A DNA stretch of 64,000 bases from Candidatus Limnocylindrales bacterium (GTDB lineage Bacteria > Desulfobacterota > Binatia > UBA1149 > CAITLU01), in NCBI GenBank assembly GCA_035626395.1, contig DASPNR010000007.1:293012-357011 (forward strand). Reading direction: 5' to 3'. Of this stretch, positions 5,637-50,146 are shown piece after piece. Made by a program: the position numbers and the translations under genes. Position 1 is the stretch's first letter. Each line of letters starts with the position of its first letter. The notes beneath the pieces were generated by a model. The model worked only from the letters and a program-made list of their open reading frames with translations. It had not been told where the DNA came from and made no database searches.

Positions 5637-6463
5637 GCGGCTTCACGCAGCGAGTGCGCGACGTGATCGAACAGCTCGAGCACCGCCTCGCGTCCCGCCA
5701 GCGACGTCTCGTACTCGCGCCGCAGCGCCACCGTCAGGTGGAACATGACGTGCGCGACGCCCTGCGCATGGTAGAAGTGATCGTCGGTCTGCAGGAAGCC
5801 CACGTCCTCGCGCAGAAGATTGGCGTGCGCATCGCCGAGCATGTCGGTCCAGGTCTGGAAGAGGCGGATCAGCTCGACGTTGCGGCGATTGATCGGCTTG
5901 GACGTCGGCGCCGGCGTCGCGAGGCCCGCGACGTAGCGCCGCAGCGACTCGACGCCGTCGCGGAAGCGCGACTCCGCCGACGGGAACCAGAACTTGTGCT
6001 CGTCGTTGCGCAGCCGCGTCTCCGCATCGACCAGGTTCTGGTCGTATTCGCTCGCGGAGACCTTGGTCAGATGATCGCGAAAGACGCGCGTGCTCTCGCG
6101 AACCGCCTGGATGATGCCGAGCTGACGGTTGGCGTTGTTGTCCGCCATCAGCGCCGGTCCCCACAGGATGAAGTCGTTGGGCCGCCAGCCCGTGGTGCTG
6201 TCGAGCTCGTGCTGGACCAGAGCCGCTACCGTCGACGCGAATGCCTCGCCGCCCACCATCGGACGGTCGGCCGGGAACTCGTTGTGGACGTGGAACGGAA
6301 GACGGTTGTGGCTTATCTGCGTGAAGTGCAGGAACAGCGGGGTCACCAGGAAGAGGAGTATCAGGATCGCGCCGGCTGCGGACTGAAGCATGGTGGCGAA
6401 GCGTACTGTGTGGCCGCGGAGGGTCCAACCGCGGCGCTCAGGAGGCCGGAAAGTCGCGAGCAT
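5504..6463 (-). CDS. Conserved hypothetical protein with an N-terminal transmembrane anchor, possibly DUF2333-like
   Basis: Codon usage looks coding. It sits directly upstream of the PAS/GAF kinase and overlaps it. The start is either 6463 or 6391 (MLQSAAG...). The family assignment is from memory and uncertain. Confidence 0.55.
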   Translation of the reverse strand: MLATFRPPERRGWTLRGHTVRFATMLQSAAGAILILLFLVTPLFLHFTQISHNRLPFHVHNEFPADRPMVGGEAFASTVAALVQHELDSTTGWRPNDFILWGPALMADNNANRQLGIIQAVRESTRVFRDHLTKVSASEYDQNLVDAETRLRNDEHKFWFPSAESRFRDGVESLRRYVAGLATPAPTSKPINRRNVELIRLFQTWTDMLGDAHANLLREDVGFLQTDDHFYHAQGVAHVMFHLTVALRREYETSLAGREAVLELFDHVAHSLREAAWIKPLVVMNGGPSGIFANHRRNLDVFIIDARQLMYTIREELEK

Positions 6464-9400
6464 CCTGTCCCCGCGTCAGCCTCGCCAGCGTCGTCTCGAC
6501 CTGCGCCAGCTCGACCGGCTTCATCAGGTGGGCGTTGAACCCTGCGTCCGCGCTCTTTCGGCGGTCTTCCCCCTGGCCGTATCCGGTCACGGCAATGAGC
6601 GCGGTATCGGCGTGCTGGGGCTGCTTGCGCAGCCGTCGTGCGACCTCGTAGCCGTCCATGCCGGGAAGCCCGATATCGAGCAGGATCGCATCGGGATCGA
6701 AGCGTGCGGCGATGTGAAGGGCCGCCTCGCCGTCGTGTGCGGTGCGGACCTGATGGCCGGCCAGTCGAAGCAGGACCGCGAGGCTTTCGGCGGCATCGAC
6801 GTTGTCGTCGACGATCAGCACCCGCCGCGCGGCGGCCGCCCTTTCGGCCTCGGTGCGCGGCATGGGAGCCATCGCGCCGTCCTCGCGCCGGATGGGAAGG
6901 CGCAGCTCGAAGACGCTGCCACGTCCGATGCCTTCGCTGCCGGCCTGGATCTGGCCGCCGTGCAGCTCGACCAGCCGCCGCACCAGAGTCAGCCCGATTC
7001 CGAGGCCGCCGCCGGAGCCGGTGGAGCGGTGCACCTGCATGAAGGGCTCGAACACGCGCGAGAGCATCTCGGGAGCCAGTCCCGTTCCATCGTCCCTCAC
7101 GCGCACCACGGCTGCGGGAACGGCGGCGCCGTCAGCCTGCTCGCGCGACAGCGTTACCCAGATGTTGCCGCCCTCGTGCGTGAACTTCGAGGAGTTGCCC
7201 AGCAGATTGGCCAGGATCTGCTCGAGGCGCATGGGATCGCCGTCGACGAACGTCGCCTGCCCGTCCAACTCCAGATGCAGGTGCTGCTCGTGGCCTTCGA
7301 GTGCGGGACGCAGCGCCTCGCACGTCCGATGCACGACCTGCGCGAGGTCGAGCGGCTCCAGCCGCAGATGGATCCGGCCGCTGGTGATGCGAGAGACGTC
7401 CAGGAGATCGTCGATCATGCGCGCCATGTGCGCGATCTGGCGCTCCATCATGGCGCGCGTGCGGACTGTCGTATCCGGATCGTCGACCATTTGAAGCACT
7501 TGCGAGCCGCTGCTCATGGCGGCAAGGGGATTGCGAAGCTCGTGCGCGAGCATGGCCAGGAATTCGGTCTGACGGCGGTTGGCCTGCGCGAGCTGCTCGA
7601 CCCTGGTACGCAGCGACTCCTCCAGGGCCTTGCGGTGCGTGATGTCCTTCATCGAGAGGACGATGGAGAAGTCTCCGTCGTCTCGCGTCAGCCGCTGCGC
7701 GTTCAGGAGCAGGGTGCGGCGCACGCCGCCGTCGGCGGTGAACGAGTGCTCGAAGTCCTCCATGGGCGTGCCGGTGTAGCGAACCGCATCGAGGGCGCGT
7801 CGCAGGTCGGCCGTGTTCCACCGCCCGTCGCAGATGCGCGGTAGCGGGCTTTGCTCGACGTCGGCGGCCGACAGTCCCATCGCGTCATAGAACCTGTCAC
7901 TCGCCTTCTGCACGCGCAGGTCCGCATCCAGCACGAGCAGCGGCTCGGCGACCGCCGCCACGATCGCTTCGGCGTACCGCCGCGCGCGCGCTAGCGTGTC
8001 GATGTCCACGAGCAGCAGCACCACCCCGTCCAGACGGTTGTCGAGCGTGCGATACGGCCATATGCGCAGCGAGTGCCAACGGCCCTGCTTGTCCTGGACG
8101 TCCATCTCCTGAAACGTCATCGAATCGATGACCTCGGTCACCAGGGGTTCCAGGTCGTCGATGCTGAGGCCGAGCTTCAAATCGGAGATGGAGCGGCCGA
8201 CGTCGCTGCTGCGCACGTTCAGGACGCGCTCTGCTGCCGGCGTCACCCGGCGGATGCGCAGGTTGGCGCCCAGCATGATAATCGGCATGCGGACGCTGGC
8301 CAGGAGGTTGACGAGGTCGTTGTTGGTCTGGCTCAGCTCGTGATTCCGCCGGCTGAGCTCGTCGTTGAGCGTGGCCAGTTCCTCGTTGCTGGACTCGATT
8401 TCCTCCTTGGAAGTCTGCAGCTCCTCGTTGATGCTCTGCAGCTCTTCATTGGCCGACTGCACCTCCTCGTTCGCTGCCTGCAGTTCCTCGTTGGCCGCTT
8501 CCTGCTGCTCCACCACCGATTGCAGATACTCGCGAGTCGCCGCCAGCTCGCTGAGCAGCCGGCGTGTCTCGTCGTTGTCCTCCGGTGCCATCGTGGCCAT
8601 CGGCACGGCCGGCTGCGCGTCCTCCGTCGGGCTGGCGGAGAACGTCACGAGATAGTGATCGCCGCTGCCGGTGCTGCGGACAGGGATGACCTCGACGTGC
8701 GCTTCGAGCGGATCCTCATCGGTGCCGAGCGCGATGCCGGACGTCCGCACGGGTACGCCATCGCGCCGAGCGCGGTCGCACGCGTTGCGTACCGGCGCCA
8801 CGAGCGCCTCCGGCAGCATCTTCAGCAGGTTCAGCGATGCGGTGCCCGACGCTGGAGCGATGAACCGGCTGGTGTCGCCGCGGAACTGCAGTATCTCGAG
8901 GTCAGCGGTCACCAGCACGCCCGGCGGTGCGTAGCGCGCGAGCAGCAGGCGGTCCGCCTCTTTGTGCGGATCGCTGGACCTTGCCGCGGCCGGACGTTCG
9001 GAGCGTGCCGGCCAGTACGCCGCCAGGCCGCTACGGCGCGTTCCCGGCGCCGATATGGTGGGGGAGGAGCGCGCGCCGGCTTTCTTGCCGTAGAAGTTGA
9101 ACGTCTGGCTGGCGCTGTCGAACAAGTGCGCGGCCCCGACGATCGCTTCCGAAGGGCCCAGCCATAGGATGCCGCCGGGCTTGAGCGCGTAGTGCAGCGT
9201 CGGCATCAGCCTCTCCTGCAGGCTGCGTTCGAGGTAGATCATCATGTTGCGGCAGCTGACGAGGTCCATGCGCGAGAACGGCGGCTCTGCAAGCCCGTTG
9301 TGCGTCGCGAACACGCACATCTCCCGCGTGGCGCGGTTGACGCGGTAGCAGTCGCCCATGCGAACGAAGAACTGACGCAGCCGCTCTGGAGAAACGTCCT

Positions 9401-10535
9401 TCTCGATGCTCCTGGAGTAGACGCCGCTGCGAGCCTTCTCGATGCCTGCCGGATTGAGATCGGTGGCGAATATCTGCACCGGCAGGGGCCGTCCTCTCTG
9501 CTGTGCGAACTCCTGGCAGATGATCGCGATCGAATACGCCTCCTCTCCGGTCGAGCAACCCAGAACCCAGATCCGCAGCGGCTCCAGCCGGCTGCGCTCC
9601 GACACCAGTGCCGGAAGAATTTCGTCCCGCAGCGCTTCGAAAGCTTCGGGGTTACGGAAGAAGCTGGTGACGTTGATCAGGATGTCGTGGAAAAGGTTCT
9701 CCACTTCCTCCTGGCTGGAGCGGAGCAGCTCGAGATACTGGCCGAGGTCGTGCAGCTTGTGCAGCACCATGCGCCGGGTCACGCGGCGGAACAGGGTGCT
9801 GTGCTTGTAGTGCGAGAAGTCGGCTCCGAGGCTGTCGCTGATGACGTCGAGGATTTCGCGCAGCTCGTTCCCGTCGAGGCGCTCGCCGGCTTCGAATCTG
9901 TCCCGGTCGACGTACGGGTGGCGCGCCATGCGTCGCAGCTCGCCCGCGATCTGCTCGGGAGGCAGCACCAGATCGACACAGCCGGCCGCAATGGCCGAGC
10001 GCGGCATGCTTACCTGCTGCGCGGTTGAATCCTGCGCGAAGGCGAAGCCGCCGGCGCCCTTGATTTCCTCGAGACCGACGGTGCCGTCGTCGCCCAGGCC
10101 CGAGAGCAGGACGCCGATTGCGCGGCGCCCCTGCTCGGAGGCCAGAGCCAGCAAGAACGTGTCGATCGGCTGCGGCCGCCCGTGCGTGTCGTCGCGCGGC
10201 GTCAGACGGAGCCTGCCACCGGCAATGACCATGCTCGTGTTGGGAGGGATGACGTAGACGTGATCGGGAGCGACCTCCTGATCATCCTCGACCTTGACCA
10301 CCGGCATGTCGGTGAGGCGGGCGAAGACCTCGTCGAGCTGGCTCGGATAGTTGGGCGCAAGGTGCGTGACGAACACGAAGGCCATGCCGGTGTCGGGCGG
10401 CAGGGCCCGTAGCATGGCCGAAAACGCTTCGATTCCACCGGCCGAAGCGCCCACGCCCACCACCGGGAACGGCAGCGCTGGCTCGGGCAGATCGAAAGCT
10501 ATTTCTTCTTTTCGGGCCCCGGTGTCATCGGCCAT
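6438..10535 (-). CDS. Hybrid chemotaxis-type sensor kinase with domain order CheB methylesterase - CheR methyltransferase - PAS - coiled coil - HisKA - HATPase_c - REC
   Basis: GVGASAGG is the CheB motif. VLGCSTGEEAYS marks the CheR SAM-methyltransferase fold. A heptad coiled coil (EELQ...) follows, then HELRNPL, then a DD...D...K receiver domain. Confidence 0.9.
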   Translation of the reverse strand: MADDTGARKEEIAFDLPEPALPFPVVGVGASAGGIEAFSAMLRALPPDTGMAFVFVTHLAPNYPSQLDEVFARLTDMPVVKVEDDQEVAPDHVYVIPPNTSMVIAGGRLRLTPRDDTHGRPQPIDTFLLALASEQGRRAIGVLLSGLGDDGTVGLEEIKGAGGFAFAQDSTAQQVSMPRSAIAAGCVDLVLPPEQIAGELRRMARHPYVDRDRFEAGERLDGNELREILDVISDSLGADFSHYKHSTLFRRVTRRMVLHKLHDLGQYLELLRSSQEEVENLFHDILINVTSFFRNPEAFEALRDEILPALVSERSRLEPLRIWVLGCSTGEEAYSIAIICQEFAQQRGRPLPVQIFATDLNPAGIEKARSGVYSRSIEKDVSPERLRQFFVRMGDCYRVNRATREMCVFATHNGLAEPPFSRMDLVSCRNMMIYLERSLQERLMPTLHYALKPGGILWLGPSEAIVGAAHLFDSASQTFNFYGKKAGARSSPTISAPGTRRSGLAAYWPARSERPAAARSSDPHKEADRLLLARYAPPGVLVTADLEILQFRGDTSRFIAPASGTASLNLLKMLPEALVAPVRNACDRARRDGVPVRTSGIALGTDEDPLEAHVEVIPVRSTGSGDHYLVTFSASPTEDAQPAVPMATMAPEDNDETRRLLSELAATREYLQSVVEQQEAANEELQAANEEVQSANEELQSINEELQTSKEEIESSNEELATLNDELSRRNHELSQTNNDLVNLLASVRMPIIMLGANLRIRRVTPAAERVLNVRSSDVGRSISDLKLGLSIDDLEPLVTEVIDSMTFQEMDVQDKQGRWHSLRIWPYRTLDNRLDGVVLLLVDIDTLARARRYAEAIVAAVAEPLLVLDADLRVQKASDRFYDAMGLSAADVEQSPLPRICDGRWNTADLRRALDAVRYTGTPMEDFEHSFTADGGVRRTLLLNAQRLTRDDGDFSIVLSMKDITHRKALEESLRTRVEQLAQANRRQTEFLAMLAHELRNPLAAMSSGSQVLQMVDDPDTTVRTRAMMERQIAHMARMIDDLLDVSRITSGRIHLRLEPLDLAQVVHRTCEALRPALEGHEQHLHLELDGQATFVDGDPMRLEQILANLLGNSSKFTHEGGNIWVTLSREQADGAAVPAAVVRVRDDGTGLAPEMLSRVFEPFMQVHRSTGSGGGLGIGLTLVRRLVELHGGQIQAGSEGIGRGSVFELRLPIRREDGAMAPMPRTEAERAAAARRVLIVDDNVDAAESLAVLLRLAGHQVRTAHDGEAALHIAARFDPDAILLDIGLPGMDGYEVARRLRKQPQHADTALIAVTGYGQGEDRRKSADAGFNAHLMKPVELAQVETTLARLTRGQDARDFPAS

Positions 10536-11052: not shown

Positions 11053-11371
11053 GAGGTCTCCTTGCGCATTCGCGCCGAAGGGGCGCGTCGCGTCTGAAAC
11101 GGCGACTGCCTCCGGCGCCGGATTATTCGTAACGTCCCGTTTGCCGCGAACATTCGCGGGACGGGCTGCCTGACCCGTTCGAGGCGGGTTTCGCACGCAT
11201 CGAGTCTGGGGCGGCCTCTTTGGAGGGACGCCGCCGCATTGCGCGACCGCCTTCGGGTCAAACCGTCTTGCTGAGGTCGCCCTATGCGGCGTAGCCATGG
11301 AGAGAACAGTGATTCCTGACGACCTGCAGCGTTTCCGCGCTGCGCGTGCGCTGAACGAAGGAGAGACCCAG

Positions 11372-13936
11372 ATGCTGACGTTCCGAAGCGCCACGATGAG
11401 AGCCGCCGCGTTGGCGCTCGTCTGCCTGTTCCTTCCCCTGCCGGCCCAGGCACTGACCGACGCCGAGACCGAGTGCCGACTGGTCATCGCCAAGAGCATG
11501 GCCACATACACGCGGGCCGCGCTTCGCGTCACCAAGAAATGCCACCGCCGGCGCAGCGCCGGGCGTATCCCCCTCAGCATCGATTGCAGCGATCTGTCGC
11601 AGGCGGACACGCGCAACAAGCTGCCCGAGTACCGAACGCTCGTGCTCGACCGCATCGGCGGAGCAGGCAGCCCCTGCTCGCAGACGCCCGGGCTCCTGTC
11701 GCGCTACCCGAGTTGTCCCGCGCCTGCCCAGAGCGCCGATGACGGCGGCGCCTCGACGGGAATCGACTCCTTCACCGAGGTGGCGCAGTGCCTGATGGCG
11801 CTGACCGACGCCGAGGTCGGTGATTTGTCCGAGGAGACGGCCGGCGATCCGGCAAGCCCGCTCAGCGAAGCGGCGCTGCAGTGTCAGACGGCGATCTCCG
11901 AAGGCGTCAAGCGCATCGTCAAGCGCTACATGCACGAGCGGCGTCTTTGTCAGCGCAATCTCGACCAGGCGGGCGGCGGTCTCGACTACGGCTGCGAGGG
12001 CGCCGACCCGAACGGCCGCATCGCGCAGGCGCGCACCGCGGTCAGCAACTCCATCGCCACCCACTGTACGCTGTCGCAGGCCGAGCTGGCCACGCTCGAC
12101 TCGTGCGGCGATACCACGGCCGAGCTGCAGCAGTGCGTCGTCGCCGCCGCCGACGAAACCGGCGCCGATCTGATCGAGAACGCCTACGAGCTGCCCGGCG
12201 CAACGACGACGACCACGGAGGCGCCGCCGACCACGACGCTGGCGCCCACGACGACCACGACGATCTCCGGCCCGACGACCACGCTCGGCGCCACCACCAC
12301 GACGATCACCGGCCCCACCACCACCGTGGGACCGACGACGACGACGCTGACGGGCCCGACCACCACCGTCGGGCCGACCACGACGACCCTGACGGGCCCG
12401 ACCACCACGACGATGCCGGAGGCGCAATGCGCCGATACGTTCCCGCTGTGCAACGGCGCGTGCGGCGACGGCACGTTCTGCGGCGTCGACGGGACGGCGT
12501 GCGTCTGCGAGGCGGCCACCGGCGCCTGCGCGCCGGCAACGATCGAACGCGTCTTCCACGCGAAGTACGAGGGCAGCCAGACCAGCCTCAGCACCGGCTG
12601 GACCGGCACGGCGCACGACGTCGACATCCCCGGCGGCAGCCGCGACGTCGTCGACGTCGTCTGCGACCAGGAGTGCGAGAACTGCCAGGTCTCGCTCAAC
12701 GTGCAGGAAGGGCAGACCGTGTCGAACTGTCGCTGCGCTTCCTCGCCGCAGACCACCTGCACCGTCATCAACGGGCCCGATCCCGACAACTGCGGCGTCG
12801 TCGACTCCTCGTGCAACTGCTACTTCGGCTCCCCGCTGGCCATCTCCGCCGGCGGAACGCCGGTGTGCGTGACCAACGAGATCATCGAGGACTACAGCGG
12901 GACGATGAACCTGCGTACCGGCGAATGGTACGAGCGCACCAAGCTCGCCTCGGTGGTCCATCTCGGCGCCGACGTGTTCAATCCCTGCCCGCTGTGCGCA
13001 GGCGACGAAACGGCCAATGACGGCGTTCGCGGCGGCACCTGCGAGGGCGGCCTGCAGGACGGCATGAGCTGCGACGTCAACGGCGACCACCTCACGTTCG
13101 GACCGACCAGCTTCGACTGCCCGCCGCCGAGCCTCAGCAACATCAGCGGCAGCGGGCTGCTGCTCGACCTGAAGTTCTCGACGGGCCCGCAAGCGCTGGC
13201 GGCGAACCTCCCGTGCGATACGCCGGACGATGCGCTGTGCGCGTGCCGCGTCTGCTCGGGCAACAACAGGGTCGGCTGCGCCACCAACGCCGACTGCGAG
13301 GAATTCGACGCAGGAACCTGCACGGCCGGAGGTGGCGCGGGCGTCCAGCCCAACGAGTGCACGGATTTCGAATGCGGCGAGGACGATCGCTGCACGCAGG
13401 GCCCCATCGACAACTTCTGTGACGGCGTGACCCATCCCGACGGCCGCGGTTTCCTCAGCTGCGTGAGCGACCTGGACTGCCAGGCCCTGGGAGCGGGGCA
13501 GTGCACGGTCCAGGATCTGCGCCGCTGCTACAACTATCCGATCGAGACCACCGGCGACCCGGACATCGAGGAGCCGGTCAAGGCATCGATCTTCTGCATC
13601 CCGCCCACGACGAGCCCGGCCGTGAACTCCTCCGGCGGCCTGCCCGGCCCCGGTGTGTTCCGTCTGGACTTCGACGTGGACGTCCGATGCCAGAACGATC
13701 CGACCAAAGCCTACCAGTTCCCGAGCGGCGACAACTGCAACGAGTCCACGACCACGACGATCCAGGGCGGTACGACGCTGCCGCCGCTGACCACGACGCT
13801 GCCGGATGTGCCGACGACGCTGCCGGTGGCGGACTGCGCCCAGGCCACGCCGCCGCTGTGCGTGGGCGTCTGCGGGCCGGGAGAGGCGTGCGTGCAGGGC
13901 CTGTCGGGCTGTCAGTGCGGGGGGATCATGCCCTAA
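11372..13936 (+). CDS. Large secreted cysteine-rich protein with a poly-Thr linker; paralog A
   Basis: RBS GGAGAG precedes the ATG. The signal peptide is MLTFRSATMRAAALALVCLFLPLPAQA. A roughly 70-aa T/P/G linker is encoded by tandem repeats. More than 60 Cys residues follow, with motifs TGWTGTAHD, CNCYFG, NPCPLC, ANDGxRGG, FCIPPT and GLPGPG. Confidence 0.85.
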   Translation: MLTFRSATMRAAALALVCLFLPLPAQALTDAETECRLVIAKSMATYTRAALRVTKKCHRRRSAGRIPLSIDCSDLSQADTRNKLPEYRTLVLDRIGGAGSPCSQTPGLLSRYPSCPAPAQSADDGGASTGIDSFTEVAQCLMALTDAEVGDLSEETAGDPASPLSEAALQCQTAISEGVKRIVKRYMHERRLCQRNLDQAGGGLDYGCEGADPNGRIAQARTAVSNSIATHCTLSQAELATLDSCGDTTAELQQCVVAAADETGADLIENAYELPGATTTTTEAPPTTTLAPTTTTTISGPTTTLGATTTTITGPTTTVGPTTTTLTGPTTTVGPTTTTLTGPTTTTMPEAQCADTFPLCNGACGDGTFCGVDGTACVCEAATGACAPATIERVFHAKYEGSQTSLSTGWTGTAHDVDIPGGSRDVVDVVCDQECENCQVSLNVQEGQTVSNCRCASSPQTTCTVINGPDPDNCGVVDSSCNCYFGSPLAISAGGTPVCVTNEIIEDYSGTMNLRTGEWYERTKLASVVHLGADVFNPCPLCAGDETANDGVRGGTCEGGLQDGMSCDVNGDHLTFGPTSFDCPPPSLSNISGSGLLLDLKFSTGPQALAANLPCDTPDDALCACRVCSGNNRVGCATNADCEEFDAGTCTAGGGAGVQPNECTDFECGEDDRCTQGPIDNFCDGVTHPDGRGFLSCVSDLDCQALGAGQCTVQDLRRCYNYPIETTGDPDIEEPVKASIFCIPPTTSPAVNSSGGLPGPGVFRLDFDVDVRCQNDPTKAYQFPSGDNCNESTTTTIQGGTTLPPLTTTLPDVPTTLPVADCAQATPPLCVGVCGPGEACVQGLSGCQCGGIMP
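12205..12420. repeat. Tandem repeats of about 39 nt encoding the (GPTTTVGPTTTTLT)n linker of Cys-rich paralog A
   Basis: Repeating ggcccgaccaccaccgtgggaccgacgacgacgacgctgacg units are visible. Confidence 0.8.
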
Positions 13937-20622: not shown

Positions 20623-20757
20623 CCCGCCATCGGGCCCTCCCGCCTGCGTGATTTTCTCGCGCCGTCGAATGGCGCGAGAAAAGCCCGCGTCGTCTCTCGT
20701 AGCGCAAGGCGACCTGCTCGTGCAGGGAACCCCCGCTTTGTGCCGGAGGATGCGCCG

Positions 20758-21381
20758 ATGAGAGTGACGCATTGGTTGGGCGCCGTTGCCGGCGCTTTCG
20801 CGATGTCGACCGCAGCCGAGGCCCACGTGCCGGCTGCCCATGCTTCCTGCGCCGGCGCCGGCGGCGACGCGGCGCAGATGCTCGCCCAGACCGCTTCCCC
20901 GCAACCTTCCACGATCGCACCAGGCCAGCTCGGCACTTCGCCGCACGTCCCCGGCCATTTCCCGGGCGCGGGCGGCAGTCCGGGCCGAGCCACCGGCGGC
21001 CCCGGCACCGGCGCCACCGGCGACGGCGGCGTCGCCGGCACCGCGGCATCCGGTGAGCGCGGAGCAACGGGCACTGGCGCAGCAACGAACACGGACGCCG
21101 GCGTCGGTACCGACGCCGGCCCGGGCATGGAGACCGGCGCAGGCGCGGCGCCCGCGTCGGAGGTCGAGGAAGGAAGCCGTCTCGATACCGAGGCCTTCCG
21201 CCCTCGCATCGGCAGCGATGCCGAGCGCGCCGGCACCGGCGGCGCGGGCGGCGCGGGCGTCGAGGCGGATGTGAACAGGCGCGTGTTCGCGCCGAGCGGC
21301 ACCGGCGTCAGCGGCGAGGCTGGAACCGCCGCGCCCGGCGGCGCGGGAACCGCAGCGGGCGGCGCCGCCGCCGGCCGCTGA
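20758..21381 (+). CDS. Secreted Gly/Ala/Thr-rich low-complexity protein
   Basis: GGAGGA RBS precedes the ATG. The signal peptide is MRVTHWLGAVAGAFAMSTAAEA. GC3 is high. Confidence 0.6.
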   Translation: MRVTHWLGAVAGAFAMSTAAEAHVPAAHASCAGAGGDAAQMLAQTASPQPSTIAPGQLGTSPHVPGHFPGAGGSPGRATGGPGTGATGDGGVAGTAASGERGATGTGAATNTDAGVGTDAGPGMETGAGAAPASEVEEGSRLDTEAFRPRIGSDAERAGTGGAGGAGVEADVNRRVFAPSGTGVSGEAGTAAPGGAGTAAGGAAAGR

Positions 21382-21429: not shown

Positions 21430-21894
21430 ATGAGCAGGATCTCTTTTCGCACGGTCGCCGTCACCGCAGGTCTGATCGTTGCAGCGGGCACCGTGTACGC
21501 CGACGCTCCCAGGCTCGACGATGGCGCGACCGGAGCGCAGCTGGCGCAGACCGGCAGCGGGTCAGGCAAGGCCGGCTCGGCGGCCGGAAGGATGGGAGCG
21601 GGTACGAACACCGACTCGGGAACCAACACCGACAGTGGGACCAACGCCGACGCCGCGCCGGGCGCCGCGGGCAGCGCGCCCGGCCGCTTGGGAACCACGC
21701 CAGGTCAGGCGGGCACGGCGCCTGGAATGGGCGGCACGGCTCCCGGCACGGCCGGCACCGTTCCGCCGGCCGGATCGGGCGCGGGCAGCACTGGCAGCGG
21801 TACCGGCACTGGTACCGGCACGGGCACCGGTACCGGTAGCGGCACTGGCAGCGGCACTGGCAGCGGCACCGGCACTGGCAGCGGCGGTCGCTGA
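21430..21894 (+). CDS. Secreted Gly/Thr/Ser-rich low-complexity protein ending in a (GTGS)n repeat
   Basis: AGGAGG RBS precedes the ATG. The signal peptide is MSRISFRTVAVTAGLIVAAGTVYA. The 3' end is encoded by tandem GGCACYGGY repeats. Confidence 0.65.
   Translation: MSRISFRTVAVTAGLIVAAGTVYADAPRLDDGATGAQLAQTGSGSGKAGSAAGRMGAGTNTDSGTNTDSGTNADAAPGAAGSAPGRLGTTPGQAGTAPGMGGTAPGTAGTVPPAGSGAGSTGSGTGTGTGTGTGTGSGTGSGTGSGTGTGSGGR
21789..21888. repeat. (GGCACYGGY)n microsatellite-like repeat encoding (GTGS)n
   Basis: The unit ggcactggcagcggcactggcagc... is visible directly. Confidence 0.8.
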
Positions 21895-47298: not shown

Positions 47299-47561
47299 CC
47301 GCCCGCCGTGTGGCTGCGCCAGGGCGGCAGCCGCGCGCGGGCGCCGGGCCCAGCCGCGCCTTGCCCCCACCTGGCCAAGGGGCCGCCGGGCCGCCGGCTC
47401 CTACCTTCGACCGACGGTTCGGAAGCAGGATCCGCCCCGGACGGCAGGCTTCTGGCCCTCAATTCGACCGCTGCAAAGCTTCTGAGGCCAAGGCTATAGT
47501 CAGCCGCGCCGACTCGGGGCTACAAAAGAAGGGAACCGCGCATCTCAAAGGAGGACCGTGC

Positions 47562-49655
47562 ATGTCTTGGAAGTTGGCCTCACGCCTGTCGCTGTCCTTT
47601 GCTGCATCCCTGTTCGCGCTGGTGCTGTCGCTGCCGGCGGCGTCCGAAGCCGCTCAGGGCGACTGCAGCCAGCCCGTCACGTCCGGTCAGAACCCCACCG
47701 CCAGTGACTGCCTGTACATCCTCAAGAGCGCAGTCGGCACCGAAGAGTGCGAGATCTGCGTGTGCGACACGACGGGCAACGAGGAGATCCAGGCCACCGA
47801 CTCTCTGCTTTGCCTCAAGTACGCGGTCGGACAGCCGGTCGAGCTGAATTGCCCCGAGTGCGATACCACGACCACCAGCACGTCGAGCACGAGCACGTCG
47901 AGCACCAGCACGTCGACCACCACCACGACGCTGGGAGGTCCGACCACCACGATCGACACACCCACGACGACGATCGATACGCCCACGACCACCATCGACA
48001 CGCCGACGACGACGCTGAGCAACACGACCACCACGGTCGATACGCCCACGACGACGATCGATACGCCGACGACGACGCTGGTTGCCGCGGGGGCCTGCCC
48101 CGGCTTCGGCGAGCTGACGCTGTACTCGGGCTTCGGCGAGCTGTGCAGCAACAACGCCGATTGTCCGGTCGGCACCTGCAACAACGAGCGCGGCCGCTGC
48201 CAGACGGTGACCGAGCTCGACAGCGGATGGACGGGCCTGGCGCACGACTCCGACATCAACAACGAGACGCTCAGCCGCGGCTTCCTGGACTGTCCGGGAA
48301 CCGGCGGCGCCTGCGGTGTCTGCTCGGTCGAAGGCCTGGATCCCTCCATCGGCAACTGCCGGTGCGCCAACAACAACCAGGCGGTGTGCGACGAGAAATT
48401 CGCGGCCGATGCGGACGACTGCGGCGGCCAGGTCTGCAACTGCTACTTCGGCGCGCCCTTCCCGCTCTCCTCGGGCGGCACGCCGGCCTGCATCGTCAAC
48501 CGCTTCTTCGAGGACATCTCGGGAACGGCCAATCCCGATACGGGCTCCGGCGCGATTTCGGCGAACCTGCGTACGCAGGTCTTCCTCGGCATCACCACGA
48601 GCAATCCGTGTCCGGTCTGCGGCGGCGTCTGCTCCAACGACGACACGCAGACGTGCATCTTCGATGCCGACTGCGGCGACGGCAACACCTGTCAGGATGA
48701 CCCGACCGCCAACGACGGCAACCGCGGCGGCGTCTGCGTGGACGGCCGCAACATCGGAACGGCCTGCGACGTGAACGCCTACAACACCTCGTTCCCGGCC
48801 ATTCCCAACGCGCCGGGCGGCGCCGGCTACAGCATCGACTGCTTCCCCGATACCGGCAAGAACGTGTCGGGCGCGGGCCTGGTCATCCAGCTGACGCAGA
48901 CGACCGGGACCCAGCAGCTCGACTTCGACGTGCCGTGCGGCAACGGCGACCTGCTCTGCGCCTGCCGGCAGTGCACGACCGATGCAACGGTGCCGTGCGA
49001 CGATGATGCGGACTGCGCGTCGCAGTCGGGCGCGTGCAGCGTCTCCAACAAGTTCCTGTGCACGTCGAACAACGACTGCTCGAGCGTCAATGCCGGCACG
49101 TGCCTGACGATCAAGCGCTGCAGCCAGGCGACGTCTCTGACCTGCAACACCAACACCGACTGCCTCAATCGCAACGTGGGCCAGTGCAATCCGTCCACCT
49201 GCAGCGCGAACGGCACCGGCGGCTTCCCGTCGCCGAACCAGTGCCAGGGCGGGCTGTGCGAGGACGCCGGCGACGAGGAAGGCTTGTGCACCGAGGGCCC
49301 GGACGAGAGCAGCTGCGATGCGGTGGTGAAGGCCAACGGCGACGGCATCCTGTCGTGCTCGGTCAACGCCGATTGCGAGCCAGCATCGGTCGGTGTCGAC
49401 GCCGGCAACTGCACGCTGGTCAAGCGCCGCGAATGCTTCCTCGACCCGATCGTGGCCACCGGACAGGCCAGCCCGACCATGCCGGTGGGAGCGTCCGTGT
49501 TCTGCATCCCGCCCACGAGCAACCAGCCCATCAACACGGTGGCGGGTCTGCCGGGGCCGGGACGCGTGACCAATCAGGCGATCTCGCGGACGTTCTGCGA
49601 GAACGCGCCGGAGACGCAGTACACGCCGGGCGTGGGCGGCTGCCCCGCAGAATAG
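47562..49655 (+). CDS. Large secreted cysteine-rich protein with a poly-Thr linker; paralog B
   Basis: AAGGAGGA RBS precedes the ATG. A signal peptide is present. The N-terminus carries a duplicated dockerin-like segment (DCLYILKSAVG / DSLLCLKYAVG), followed by (TPTTTID)n and a Cys-rich body sharing motifs with paralog A. Confidence 0.85.
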   Translation: MSWKLASRLSLSFAASLFALVLSLPAASEAAQGDCSQPVTSGQNPTASDCLYILKSAVGTEECEICVCDTTGNEEIQATDSLLCLKYAVGQPVELNCPECDTTTTSTSSTSTSSTSTSTTTTTLGGPTTTIDTPTTTIDTPTTTIDTPTTTLSNTTTTVDTPTTTIDTPTTTLVAAGACPGFGELTLYSGFGELCSNNADCPVGTCNNERGRCQTVTELDSGWTGLAHDSDINNETLSRGFLDCPGTGGACGVCSVEGLDPSIGNCRCANNNQAVCDEKFAADADDCGGQVCNCYFGAPFPLSSGGTPACIVNRFFEDISGTANPDTGSGAISANLRTQVFLGITTSNPCPVCGGVCSNDDTQTCIFDADCGDGNTCQDDPTANDGNRGGVCVDGRNIGTACDVNAYNTSFPAIPNAPGGAGYSIDCFPDTGKNVSGAGLVIQLTQTTGTQQLDFDVPCGNGDLLCACRQCTTDATVPCDDDADCASQSGACSVSNKFLCTSNNDCSSVNAGTCLTIKRCSQATSLTCNTNTDCLNRNVGQCNPSTCSANGTGGFPSPNQCQGGLCEDAGDEEGLCTEGPDESSCDAVVKANGDGILSCSVNADCEPASVGVDAGNCTLVKRRECFLDPIVATGQASPTMPVGASVFCIPPTSNQPINTVAGLPGPGRVTNQAISRTFCENAPETQYTPGVGGCPAE
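47867..48080. repeat. 24-nt tandem repeats encoding the (TPTTTIDT)n linker of Cys-rich paralog B, preceded by a (ST)n tract
   Basis: gatacgcccacgacgacgatc units are repeated. Confidence 0.8.
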
Positions 49656-49813
49656 GCGAGAGGGTACGATACGGTGAAGCGCGAACGGCCCGCTGCGAAA
49701 GCAGCGGGCCGTTCTGCATTCGGCCTGCCTGCCGCGAATGAATGCGGGGCCGGCCCGGTCCAAGCTGTATCCCAGAACGAAGGTGCGGCGCCGGCTGCAC
49801 CGCAGGAGAAGCC

Positions 49814-50146
49814 ATGAAGACAGCAGCTCAATACGCAGTGTGTGCGAGTCTGGCCGCTGGATTGATCTTGCCGCTCGCGGCGGCCGCCGATGAGACGACC
49901 GTCATCCGGGAGACTCCGGACGGCTACGTCGAAACCTACAAGGGCCCCGACGGCAGCTACACGCACAAGCAGAGCGGGCCCAAGAGCAAGACCGCATACG
50001 AAGGCAATGGCGTCCAGTTCAAGGAAAGCTCCAATGGAGTGGTGACCAAGCGGGTCTACCAGGACGCCAACTGCCAGCAGAAGACGGTCTCGAACGCGAA
50101 GACCGGCGAGACCACCGTCGTTTCCGAAGGCAACTGTCCCCGCTGA
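49814..50146 (+). CDS. Small secreted protein (110 aa)
   Basis: CAGGAGAAG RBS precedes the ATG. The signal peptide is MKTAAQYAVCASLAAGLILPLAAAA. Confidence 0.55.
   Translation: MKTAAQYAVCASLAAGLILPLAAAADETTVIRETPDGYVETYKGPDGSYTHKQSGPKSKTAYEGNGVQFKESSNGVVTKRVYQDANCQQKTVSNAKTGETTVVSEGNCPR

Follow-up and report, generated by a model that had tools for sequence, protein, structure and literature searches.

Secreted cysteine-rich proteins of modular build are represented in Myxococcota, Binatia and the 'delta' groups by the DUF4215 family, the Myxococcus cysteine-rich repeat (PF13948, TIGR02232). DUF4215 repeats were also found in one protein in a study of diatom adhesive trails, in which the function of the domain was stated as unknown. 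Two genes encoding proteins of the same general kind and lineage, here called gene A and gene B, are located 34 kb apart in a stretch of 64,000 nucleotides from a metagenome-assembled genome (MAG) labelled Candidatus Limnocylindrales bacterium (contig DASPNR010000007.1, positions 293,012 to 357,011; the whole stretch is referred to as the window and positions are counted from its first nucleotide). In contrast to a string of 47-amino acid repeats, each of the two proteins carries one large domain of 440 to 525 amino acids, hereafter the body, and the PF13948 model (47 positions, gathering score 27 bits) has no match in A or B at E ≤ 1, or in their sub-segments at E ≤ 10. In many relatives of A and B, DUF4215 repeats are fused to the body as a separate domain, which is found N-terminal to it only. 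A and B very probably represent two subfamilies of a large, modular family of Sec-exported Binatia proteins, which is defined by this conserved, predicted barrel domain and is absent from Pfam, NCBIfam and the PDB. With regard to function, we tentatively prefer the reading that the body would be a secreted, disulfide-stabilised binding head, which sits on a Thr-rich stalk and is positioned by the N-terminal module.

Gene A (positions 11372 to 13936) and gene B (47562 to 49655) lie on the forward strand and comprise open reading frames (ORFs) of 854 and 697 codons, as given in an initial annotation of the window, which had described them as a pair of giant paralogous secreted proteins; with 697 to 854 amino acids, the proteins are large rather than giant. 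Each ORF is preceded by a Shine-Dalgarno sequence, read as GGAG at 11360-11363, 8 nucleotides upstream of the ATG at 11372, for gene A and as AGGAGG at 47549-47554, 7 nucleotides upstream of the ATG at 47562, for gene B. The GC content at third codon positions (GC3) is 0.90 for gene A and 0.88 for gene B, similar to that of other real genes in the window (68% GC), and a scan for promoters and terminators around gene A was uninformative. Orthologues of both genes with 80-83% identity are found on one 52-kb contig of a 'Candidatus Binatia' MAG, which retains the flanking genes, namely those for enoyl-CoA hydratase and ClpB after gene A and those for IleRS, LspA, a hypothetical protein and OmpA before gene B. 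Comparison with these syntenic orthologues by the Nei-Gojobori method revealed a ratio of nonsynonymous to synonymous substitution rates (dN/dS) of 0.24 for gene A (N-terminal α-helical module 0.30, linker 0.21, body 0.20, tail 0.29) and of 0.18 for gene B (body 0.19, linker 0.10); every module of A and B is under purifying selection. The possibility that the ORFs are artefacts of a high GC content was rejected on the basis of GC3, dN/dS, the number of homologues and the confidence of the structural models. In a BLASTP comparison, A and B share 34% identity over approximately 476 columns (E = 3e-59), and judged by this sequence similarity they are paralogues far beyond chance. Both are entered at NCBI as hypothetical proteins, VEC57_04745 and VEC57_04930.

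The initial annotation had further suggested an adhesin, matrix or toxin-like role, which is a guess. A function as secreted toxins or antimicrobial effectors directed against competitors or hosts would agree with proteins that are disulfide-rich, secreted, present as many paralogues and equipped with variable surface hairpins; however, the selection on the orthologues is purifying and not diversifying (dN/dS 0.18-0.24), no small immunity-like gene is consistently adjacent, and neither a toxin domain nor genes of a dedicated secretion system were found nearby. We regard this explanation as very improbable.

The part shared by A and B is the body, which contains 26 invariant cysteines in an alignment (A2) that comprises 35 trimmed bodies of the A-type and B-type subfamilies, and the bodies of A and B align end to end with the 33 others. 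In gene A, it is encoded by positions 12413 to 13741 (amino acids 348-790, A-type subfamily) and in gene B by positions 48078 to 49655 including the stop codon (amino acids 173-697, B-type subfamily). More than 60 cysteines had been attributed to each body; the count is 40 in 443 amino acids for A and 50 in 525 amino acids for B, and 59 and 58 in the whole proteins. The motifs said to be shared by the two proteins are exact and collinear in the case of GWTGxAHDxDI, NPCPxC, ANDGxRGGxC, CDVN, FCIPPT and GLPGPG, whereas 'TGWTG' reads SGWTG in B and 'GxPxPxS' reads GSPLAIS in A. The collinear core of the family proposed here (Binatia Cys-rich barrel domain), which is present in both A and B, consists of GW.G, CRC, C.C(Y/F)FG.P...S.GG.P.C, PCP.C, DG.R.G.C, CD, S.DC.P, FC and GLPGPG. 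Invariant columns of the family alignment are mainly Cys, Gly and Pro; in addition, the polar residues R95, D111, D213, D231, S252 and N486 (numbering of the B body) are invariant, and W51, D59, D208, R216, D254 and N262 nearly so. Hairpins of the type C-x2-[ND]-x-DC-x(3-12)-C occur six times in B and twice in A; they form variable blocks, which are located at three insertion sites. We take the 26 invariant cysteines to form approximately 13 putative core disulfides, a number that would rise to 20-25 with the variable hairpins. Disulfide bonding and secretion of the two proteins are predictions based on their sequences.

Scans of A, B and their sub-modules against Pfam and NCBIfam gave no match (no Pfam family for A and B at E ≤ 1, none for the sub-segments at E ≤ 10), and searches of the PDB sequences with profiles of the body (A2) and of the full A-type alignment (A5) yielded nothing meaningful. 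No Myxococcus Cys-rich repeat or EGF family accounts for the shared motifs, which agrees with the initial annotation, in which no characterised family had been recognised; nothing on this Cys-rich Binatia family was found in the literature searched. AlphaFold2, which was run with family alignments, assigned the B body a predicted local distance difference test score (pLDDT) of 95.7 and a predicted template modelling score (pTM) of 0.92, with the whole 525-amino acid unit forming one compact globule, and the A body a pLDDT of approximately 96 in the model of the full-length protein. The core of the body is predicted to be an 8-stranded antiparallel β-barrel, whose strands are spread over the whole chain and are separated by large disulfide-rich insertions, among them the C-x2-[ND]-x-DC-x(3-12)-C hairpins in varying number. 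In the models, the barrel makes up approximately a quarter to a third of the domain, and the remainder has no detected structural counterpart. A Foldseek search against the PDB returned a best E-value of 0.8. Since the structural matches cover only 100-148 residues of the body, its modelled core appears to be a generic 8-stranded barrel; PagL, OprF, AlkL and avidins were matched at lower scores.

A barrel of this kind raises the question of whether the body could be an outer-membrane protein of the OmpW, AlkL or NspA kind, with giant surface loops made up of the Cys-rich insertions and with a role in the uptake or binding of hydrophobic substrates. We know of no outer-membrane barrel with 40-50 cysteines. 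Moreover, the C-terminus (...PGVGGCPAE) is devoid of the terminal aromatic β-signal, the strand order assigned by DSSP reads as long insertions at both ends of the barrel, proteins with two bodies in tandem and with C-terminal extensions exist, and the 525-amino acid unit is predicted as the single globule described above. An outer-membrane location was rejected on the basis of the cysteine content, the missing aromatic signal, the insertions at both ends and the tandem-body variants, and we consider this explanation extremely improbable.

Although the initial annotation spoke of two diverged copies, this understates the family, since A and B belong to two subfamilies with at least eight members in the source genome (VEC57_04745, 04930, 06285, 08325, 11365, 19185 and two DUF4215-bearing proteins); a sister genome contains at least nine. 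Searches with B retrieved at least 188 homologous proteins, in which the body is covered at 35-83% identity and many of which carry upstream PF13948 repeats, and searches with A retrieved 57 proteins, which form the separate A-type subfamily. Applied to a library of 1.84 billion clusters at 50% identity, the A2 profile recovered 1413 representatives at E ≤ 1e-3, 898 at E ≤ 1e-10 and 467 at E ≤ 1e-30; in the window, the hidden Markov model (HMM) of the family detects A and B with E-values of 1.5e-156 and 6.7e-166, respectively. The named matches are almost all from Binatia MAGs, and every named member is a 'hypothetical protein'. A scan of GTDB species genomes yielded 30 loci, nearly all of which belong to MAGs of Binatia/Binatota or to MAGs with the older labels 'delta proteobacterium' or 'Myxococcales'. 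A third, distant subfamily shares 28-33% identity with B and lacks the final Cys pair, and some of its members possess lipoboxes.

Of 307 members, 240 end with the body, 50 have a C-terminal extension after it and 11 contain it twice, and approximately half have Thr-rich runs. Among the two-body chains (P0038, P0134, P0174 and 8 others), at least P0038 and P0134 join an A-type to a B-type body. A disordered spacer rich in Thr (approximately 70 amino acids) precedes the body, and before it stands an interchangeable N-terminal module: A carries an all-α Cys-containing module and B a dockerin-like one, and relatives can have DUF4215 repeats at this place. Dockerin-like modules are found at either end of family members. 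One member with DUF4215 repeats lies on a contig labelled 'Nitrosopumilus sp.', an archaeon (L022, 1384-4014), which is most likely a mis-binned bacterial contig. The NCBI label of the source MAG, 'Candidatus Limnocylindrales' (Chloroflexota), stands against the nearest syntenic relatives of A and B (80-83% identity) and nearly all members of the family, which are Binatia; because all close relatives of the two proteins are Binatia, the label is doubtful and probably wrong. Other large Cys-rich secreted proteins adjoin family members in Binatia, for instance, a protein of 1280 amino acids with a faint DUF4215 match, Peptidase_M4 and TSP_3 (L036, 9980-13822) and a protein of 999 amino acids with a weak Dicty_CTDC match (L034, 272-3271).

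The matching architecture proposed for the two proteins holds for the signal peptide, the linker and the body, whereas their N-terminal modules are unrelated and only A possesses a second Thr-rich linker and a tail with six cysteines. The N-termini of both read as Sec type I-like signal peptides, in agreement with the initial annotation. Both have a hydrophobic core; the signal peptide of A (MLTFRSATMRAAALALVCLFLPLPAQA, amino acids 1-27, positions 11372 to 11452) also has a basic n-region and the cleavage motif AQA (...LPLPAQA|LTD), with residues 4-19 modelled as a helix, and that of B (amino acids 1-30, 47562 to 47651) has the cleavage motif SEA|AQ (...LPAASEA|AQGDC). In A, the signal peptide is followed by the all-α Cys-containing module (amino acids 28-275, 11453 to 12196), for which AlphaFold2 gave a pLDDT of approximately 97 in the full-length protein. 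A stand-alone gene of 313 amino acids, which encodes only such a helical Cys module, was found in a local HMM search directly downstream of the paralogue P0003 (L034, 9963-11027). The main Thr/Pro-rich linker of A (amino acids 276-347, 12197 to 12412) and the Thr/Ser/Pro-rich linker of B (amino acids 102-172, 47865 to 48077) both consist of 57% Thr and are encoded by tandem DNA repeats, as had been noted before; TRF detected arrays at 12220-12412 (period 42/84) in gene A and at 47869-47927 (period 15) and 47904-48077 (period 21/42), together 47869-48077, in gene B. The main linker of A is disordered in the model, as its pLDDT lies below 40. The second, short Thr/Pro-rich linker of A (amino acids 791-819, 13742 to 13828; TRF array 13772-13826, period 21) has a pLDDT below 50 at residues 793-818 and is likewise disordered in the model. 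It leads to a C-terminal mini-module with six cysteines (amino acids 820-854, 13829 to 13936 including the stop codon; C-x7-C-x3-C-x5-C-x6-C-x-C), which is modelled with a pLDDT of 80-89 and a β-hairpin at 838-851 and is conserved in the orthologue. A small module with the pattern C-x6/7-C-x3-C-x5-C-x6-C-x-C is present in A in two places, namely where the body begins (amino acids 353-379, 12428-12508) and in the tail (amino acids 822-849, 13835-13918), and the consensus of the A-type alignment has this pattern at its C-terminus as well.

The N-terminal module of B (amino acids 33-101, 47658 to 47864), which is common to at least 19 relatives, is a putative disulfide-stapled double repeat with eight cysteines, whose repeats read ...PTASDCLYILKSAVG... 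and CDTTGNEEIQATDSLLCLKYAVG. The module resembles type I dockerins (PF00404), since it is also a duplicated segment of approximately 30 amino acids, its sequence D-x-T-G-N-x-x-I-x-A-T-D-S-L-x-x-L-K-x-A-V-G is reminiscent of the dockerin loop-helix, and a Thr-rich linker comes after it, as is the case in cellulosomal enzymes. The second repeat (CDTTGNEEIQATDSLLCLKYAVG) agrees with the dockerin pattern D-x-[ND]-x-[DN]-G-x-[IV]-x-x-x-D-hxxhxxhh-G, whereas the first one (QPVTSGQNPTASDCLYILKSAVG) is degenerate and has lost the acidic loop; furthermore, canonical dockerins contain none of the eight cysteines. A direct match to Pfam was found neither for the B module at E ≤ 10 nor for any of 19 homologous modules, and a profile of the B-type N-terminal modules did not match a dockerin among the PDB sequences, the sole hit being coronavirus nsp14 at E ~0.5, a chance match. 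A link is provided by the C-terminal module of P0172, a duplicated GDVTGDSKIKATDALNVLKTAV module, to which the B module aligns with an hhalign probability of 90% (E 1.6e-6) and which itself matches Pfam Dockerin_1 weakly, with 17.6 bits and thus under the cut-off of 22.9 bits. Based on its sequence, we tentatively refer to amino acids 33-101 of B as dockerin-like.

The window is a housekeeping region, which encodes a glutathione S-transferase, topoisomerase IB, riboflavin biosynthesis and Ccm proteins, UbiA, a thiolase, GlmS, IleRS, LspA, GlnA, RsmB and PriA. Gene A is located between a gene for a CheB-CheR hybrid kinase and a gene for an enoyl-CoA hydratase; the hybrid protein of 1365 amino acids (6438 to 10535, reverse strand) comprises CheB methylesterase, CheR methyltransferase, PAS, histidine kinase and receiver domains. 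Gene B lies between a gene for an OmpA-family Gly-zipper protein and a small ORF for a secreted protein; this ORF of 134 amino acids (49742 to 50146, forward strand), directly downstream of B, has a signal peptide-like N-terminus and no Pfam match. Two further ORFs on the forward strand, 20740 to 21381 (213 amino acids) and 21430 to 21894 (154 amino acids), encode proteins with signal peptide-like N-termini and low-complexity bodies of Gly, Ala, Thr and Ser, the second of which ends in (GT/GS)n, encoded by a DNA repeat of period 6 at 21788-21885.

The position of gene B directly downstream of lspA and the gene for the OmpA-family Gly-zipper protein, which is kept in the sister species, could indicate that the family forms a structural part of the envelope or the extracellular matrix, such as a coat, an S-layer-like surface or a biofilm scaffold. 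Many paralogues per genome, of which some form tandem arrays and some are two-body chains, the frequent mucin-like Thr-rich spacers and the frequent fusion of the body to DUF4215 repeats are compatible with such a role. However, the synteny may be coincidental because the region is a housekeeping one, and A and B contain neither a self-assembly motif nor an anchor (LPXTG, PEP-CTERM or MYXO-CTERM-like tail) nor a lipobox. We consider a structural role unlikely.

A conserved gene neighbourhood is found only for the distant third subfamily, whose genes form tandem arrays of three to four in loci from three species (L025 1468-13405, L026 2621-13206, L027 2706-13354). The arrays are flanked at their 5' end by genes for a secreted hypothetical protein of 325-335 amino acids and a DsbA-like thioredoxin and at their 3' end by genes for a small family 2 glycosyltransferase (GT2), a multi-pass membrane protein of 394 amino acids without a Pfam match and a GT2-methyltransferase fusion; an incomplete fourth locus (L028 1-7190) keeps both GT2 genes. 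These neighbours may represent a maturation or glycosylation gene set, and the neighbourhood fits an oxidative folding and possibly a glycosylation of the family proteins, with an indirect bearing on A and B.

According to the binding-head reading preferred here, the proteins would be exported by Sec and oxidised by Dsb enzymes in the periplasm, and the body would then serve as a binding head, rigid and resistant to proteases, beyond the cytoplasm. A stalk rich in Thr, which is possibly O-glycosylated, would keep this head at a distance from the structure to which the N-terminal module attaches, and the variable hairpin insertions could determine the ligand specificity of the individual paralogues. 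Our leading guesses for the ligand are a glycan or a hydrophobic molecule that the barrel would hold inside or on its surface. Several observations weigh against such a role: the neighbourhood with DsbA and GT2 genes is found only in the subfamily that is 28-33% identical to B; neither A nor B has a functionally informative neighbour, and no neighbour is conserved among three other paralogues; the assignment of the dockerin-like module is a chain of weak links; and the conserved residues W51, H56, D57, R95, D213, D231, S252 and N486 would be equally suited to the active site of an enzyme.

The last point leads to the alternative that the body could be a secreted enzyme of a new kind, such as a carbohydrate-active enzyme or a peptidase. 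The N-terminal modules and the linker would then correspond to the dockerins, carbohydrate-binding modules and Pro/Thr linkers of modular glycoside hydrolases, cellulosomal or otherwise. In the shortest architecture, which consists of a signal peptide, a dockerin-like module, a linker and the body (575-700 amino acids), the body is the sole candidate effector, and in cellulosomes the dockerin-bearing partner is usually catalytic. Furthermore, polar residues are invariant or nearly so across both subfamilies, and an expansion to many paralogues is typical of enzyme families that have diversified in their substrates. Against this, there is no invariant His, with H56 being replaced in several A-type members, no likeness to a catalytic fold was found, and Asp and Asn at conserved positions in many cases stand next to Cys (DC, CD), a pattern that appears more typical of structural or Ca2+-binding positions. 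In addition, 8-stranded barrels of the YceI, avidin and lipocalin kind are usually binders. We consider an enzymatic function rather unlikely.

The idea of a binding head could be extended to a surface display system specific to Binatia, in which heads of a new barrel fold with approximately 20-25 disulfides would be presented on glycosylated Thr-rich stalks and held by dockerin-like or helical tethers, with the paralogues capturing different substrates. These might include alkanes or isoprenoids, which are proposed as hydrophobic substrates because of the analogy with the OmpW, AlkL and YceI barrels. In this extended form, the proposal appears quite improbable.

To our knowledge, the Binatia (Binatota) are a widespread phylum without a cultured member, and nothing is known about their cell surface or secretome. 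With at least eight copies per genome and approximately 1,400 clusters at 50% identity, the family described here is one of the largest lineage-specific gene expansions of Binatia. Its body domain recommends itself as a new Pfam family and as a target of structure determination, since it is modelled at very high confidence, is without relatives among the sequences of Pfam, NCBIfam and the PDB and resembles generic 8-stranded barrels only weakly. Should the heads capture substrates from the environment or act in attachment, they would provide a handle on the interaction of Binatia with soil and sediment matrices; otherwise, the family adds one more well-defined domain of unknown function. The results are thus of use for annotation, structural genomics and the biology of Binatia, while they overturn nothing and open no long-standing question.

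With respect to the fold, the systems to compare are the YceI-like polyisoprenoid-binding proteins and the barrels OmpW, NspA and AlkL. The body shares 1-10% identity with them and has no Pfam match; A and B do not match YceI-like or lipocalin-like barrels (PF04264) in sequence in Pfam or NCBIfam. None of these proteins is Cys-rich, and the disulfide-rich insertions of the body have no counterpart in them. With respect to the cysteine pattern, A and B resemble EGF, thrombospondin type 3, Dumpy DPY and LDLa modules in the recurrence of short, Asp- and Asn-rich C...DC...C hairpins, of which there are six in B and two in A. The Pfam repeat models of EGF, TSP3 and LDLa do not match A or B at E ≤ 1, and one relative has a very weak match to Dumpy_DPY (E 0.054). 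In contrast to those independent tandem modules, the hairpins of the body are insertions in a larger fold. The body represents a new domain family in proteins of a familiar kind, which are secreted, Cys-rich and modular and carry Thr/Pro linkers.

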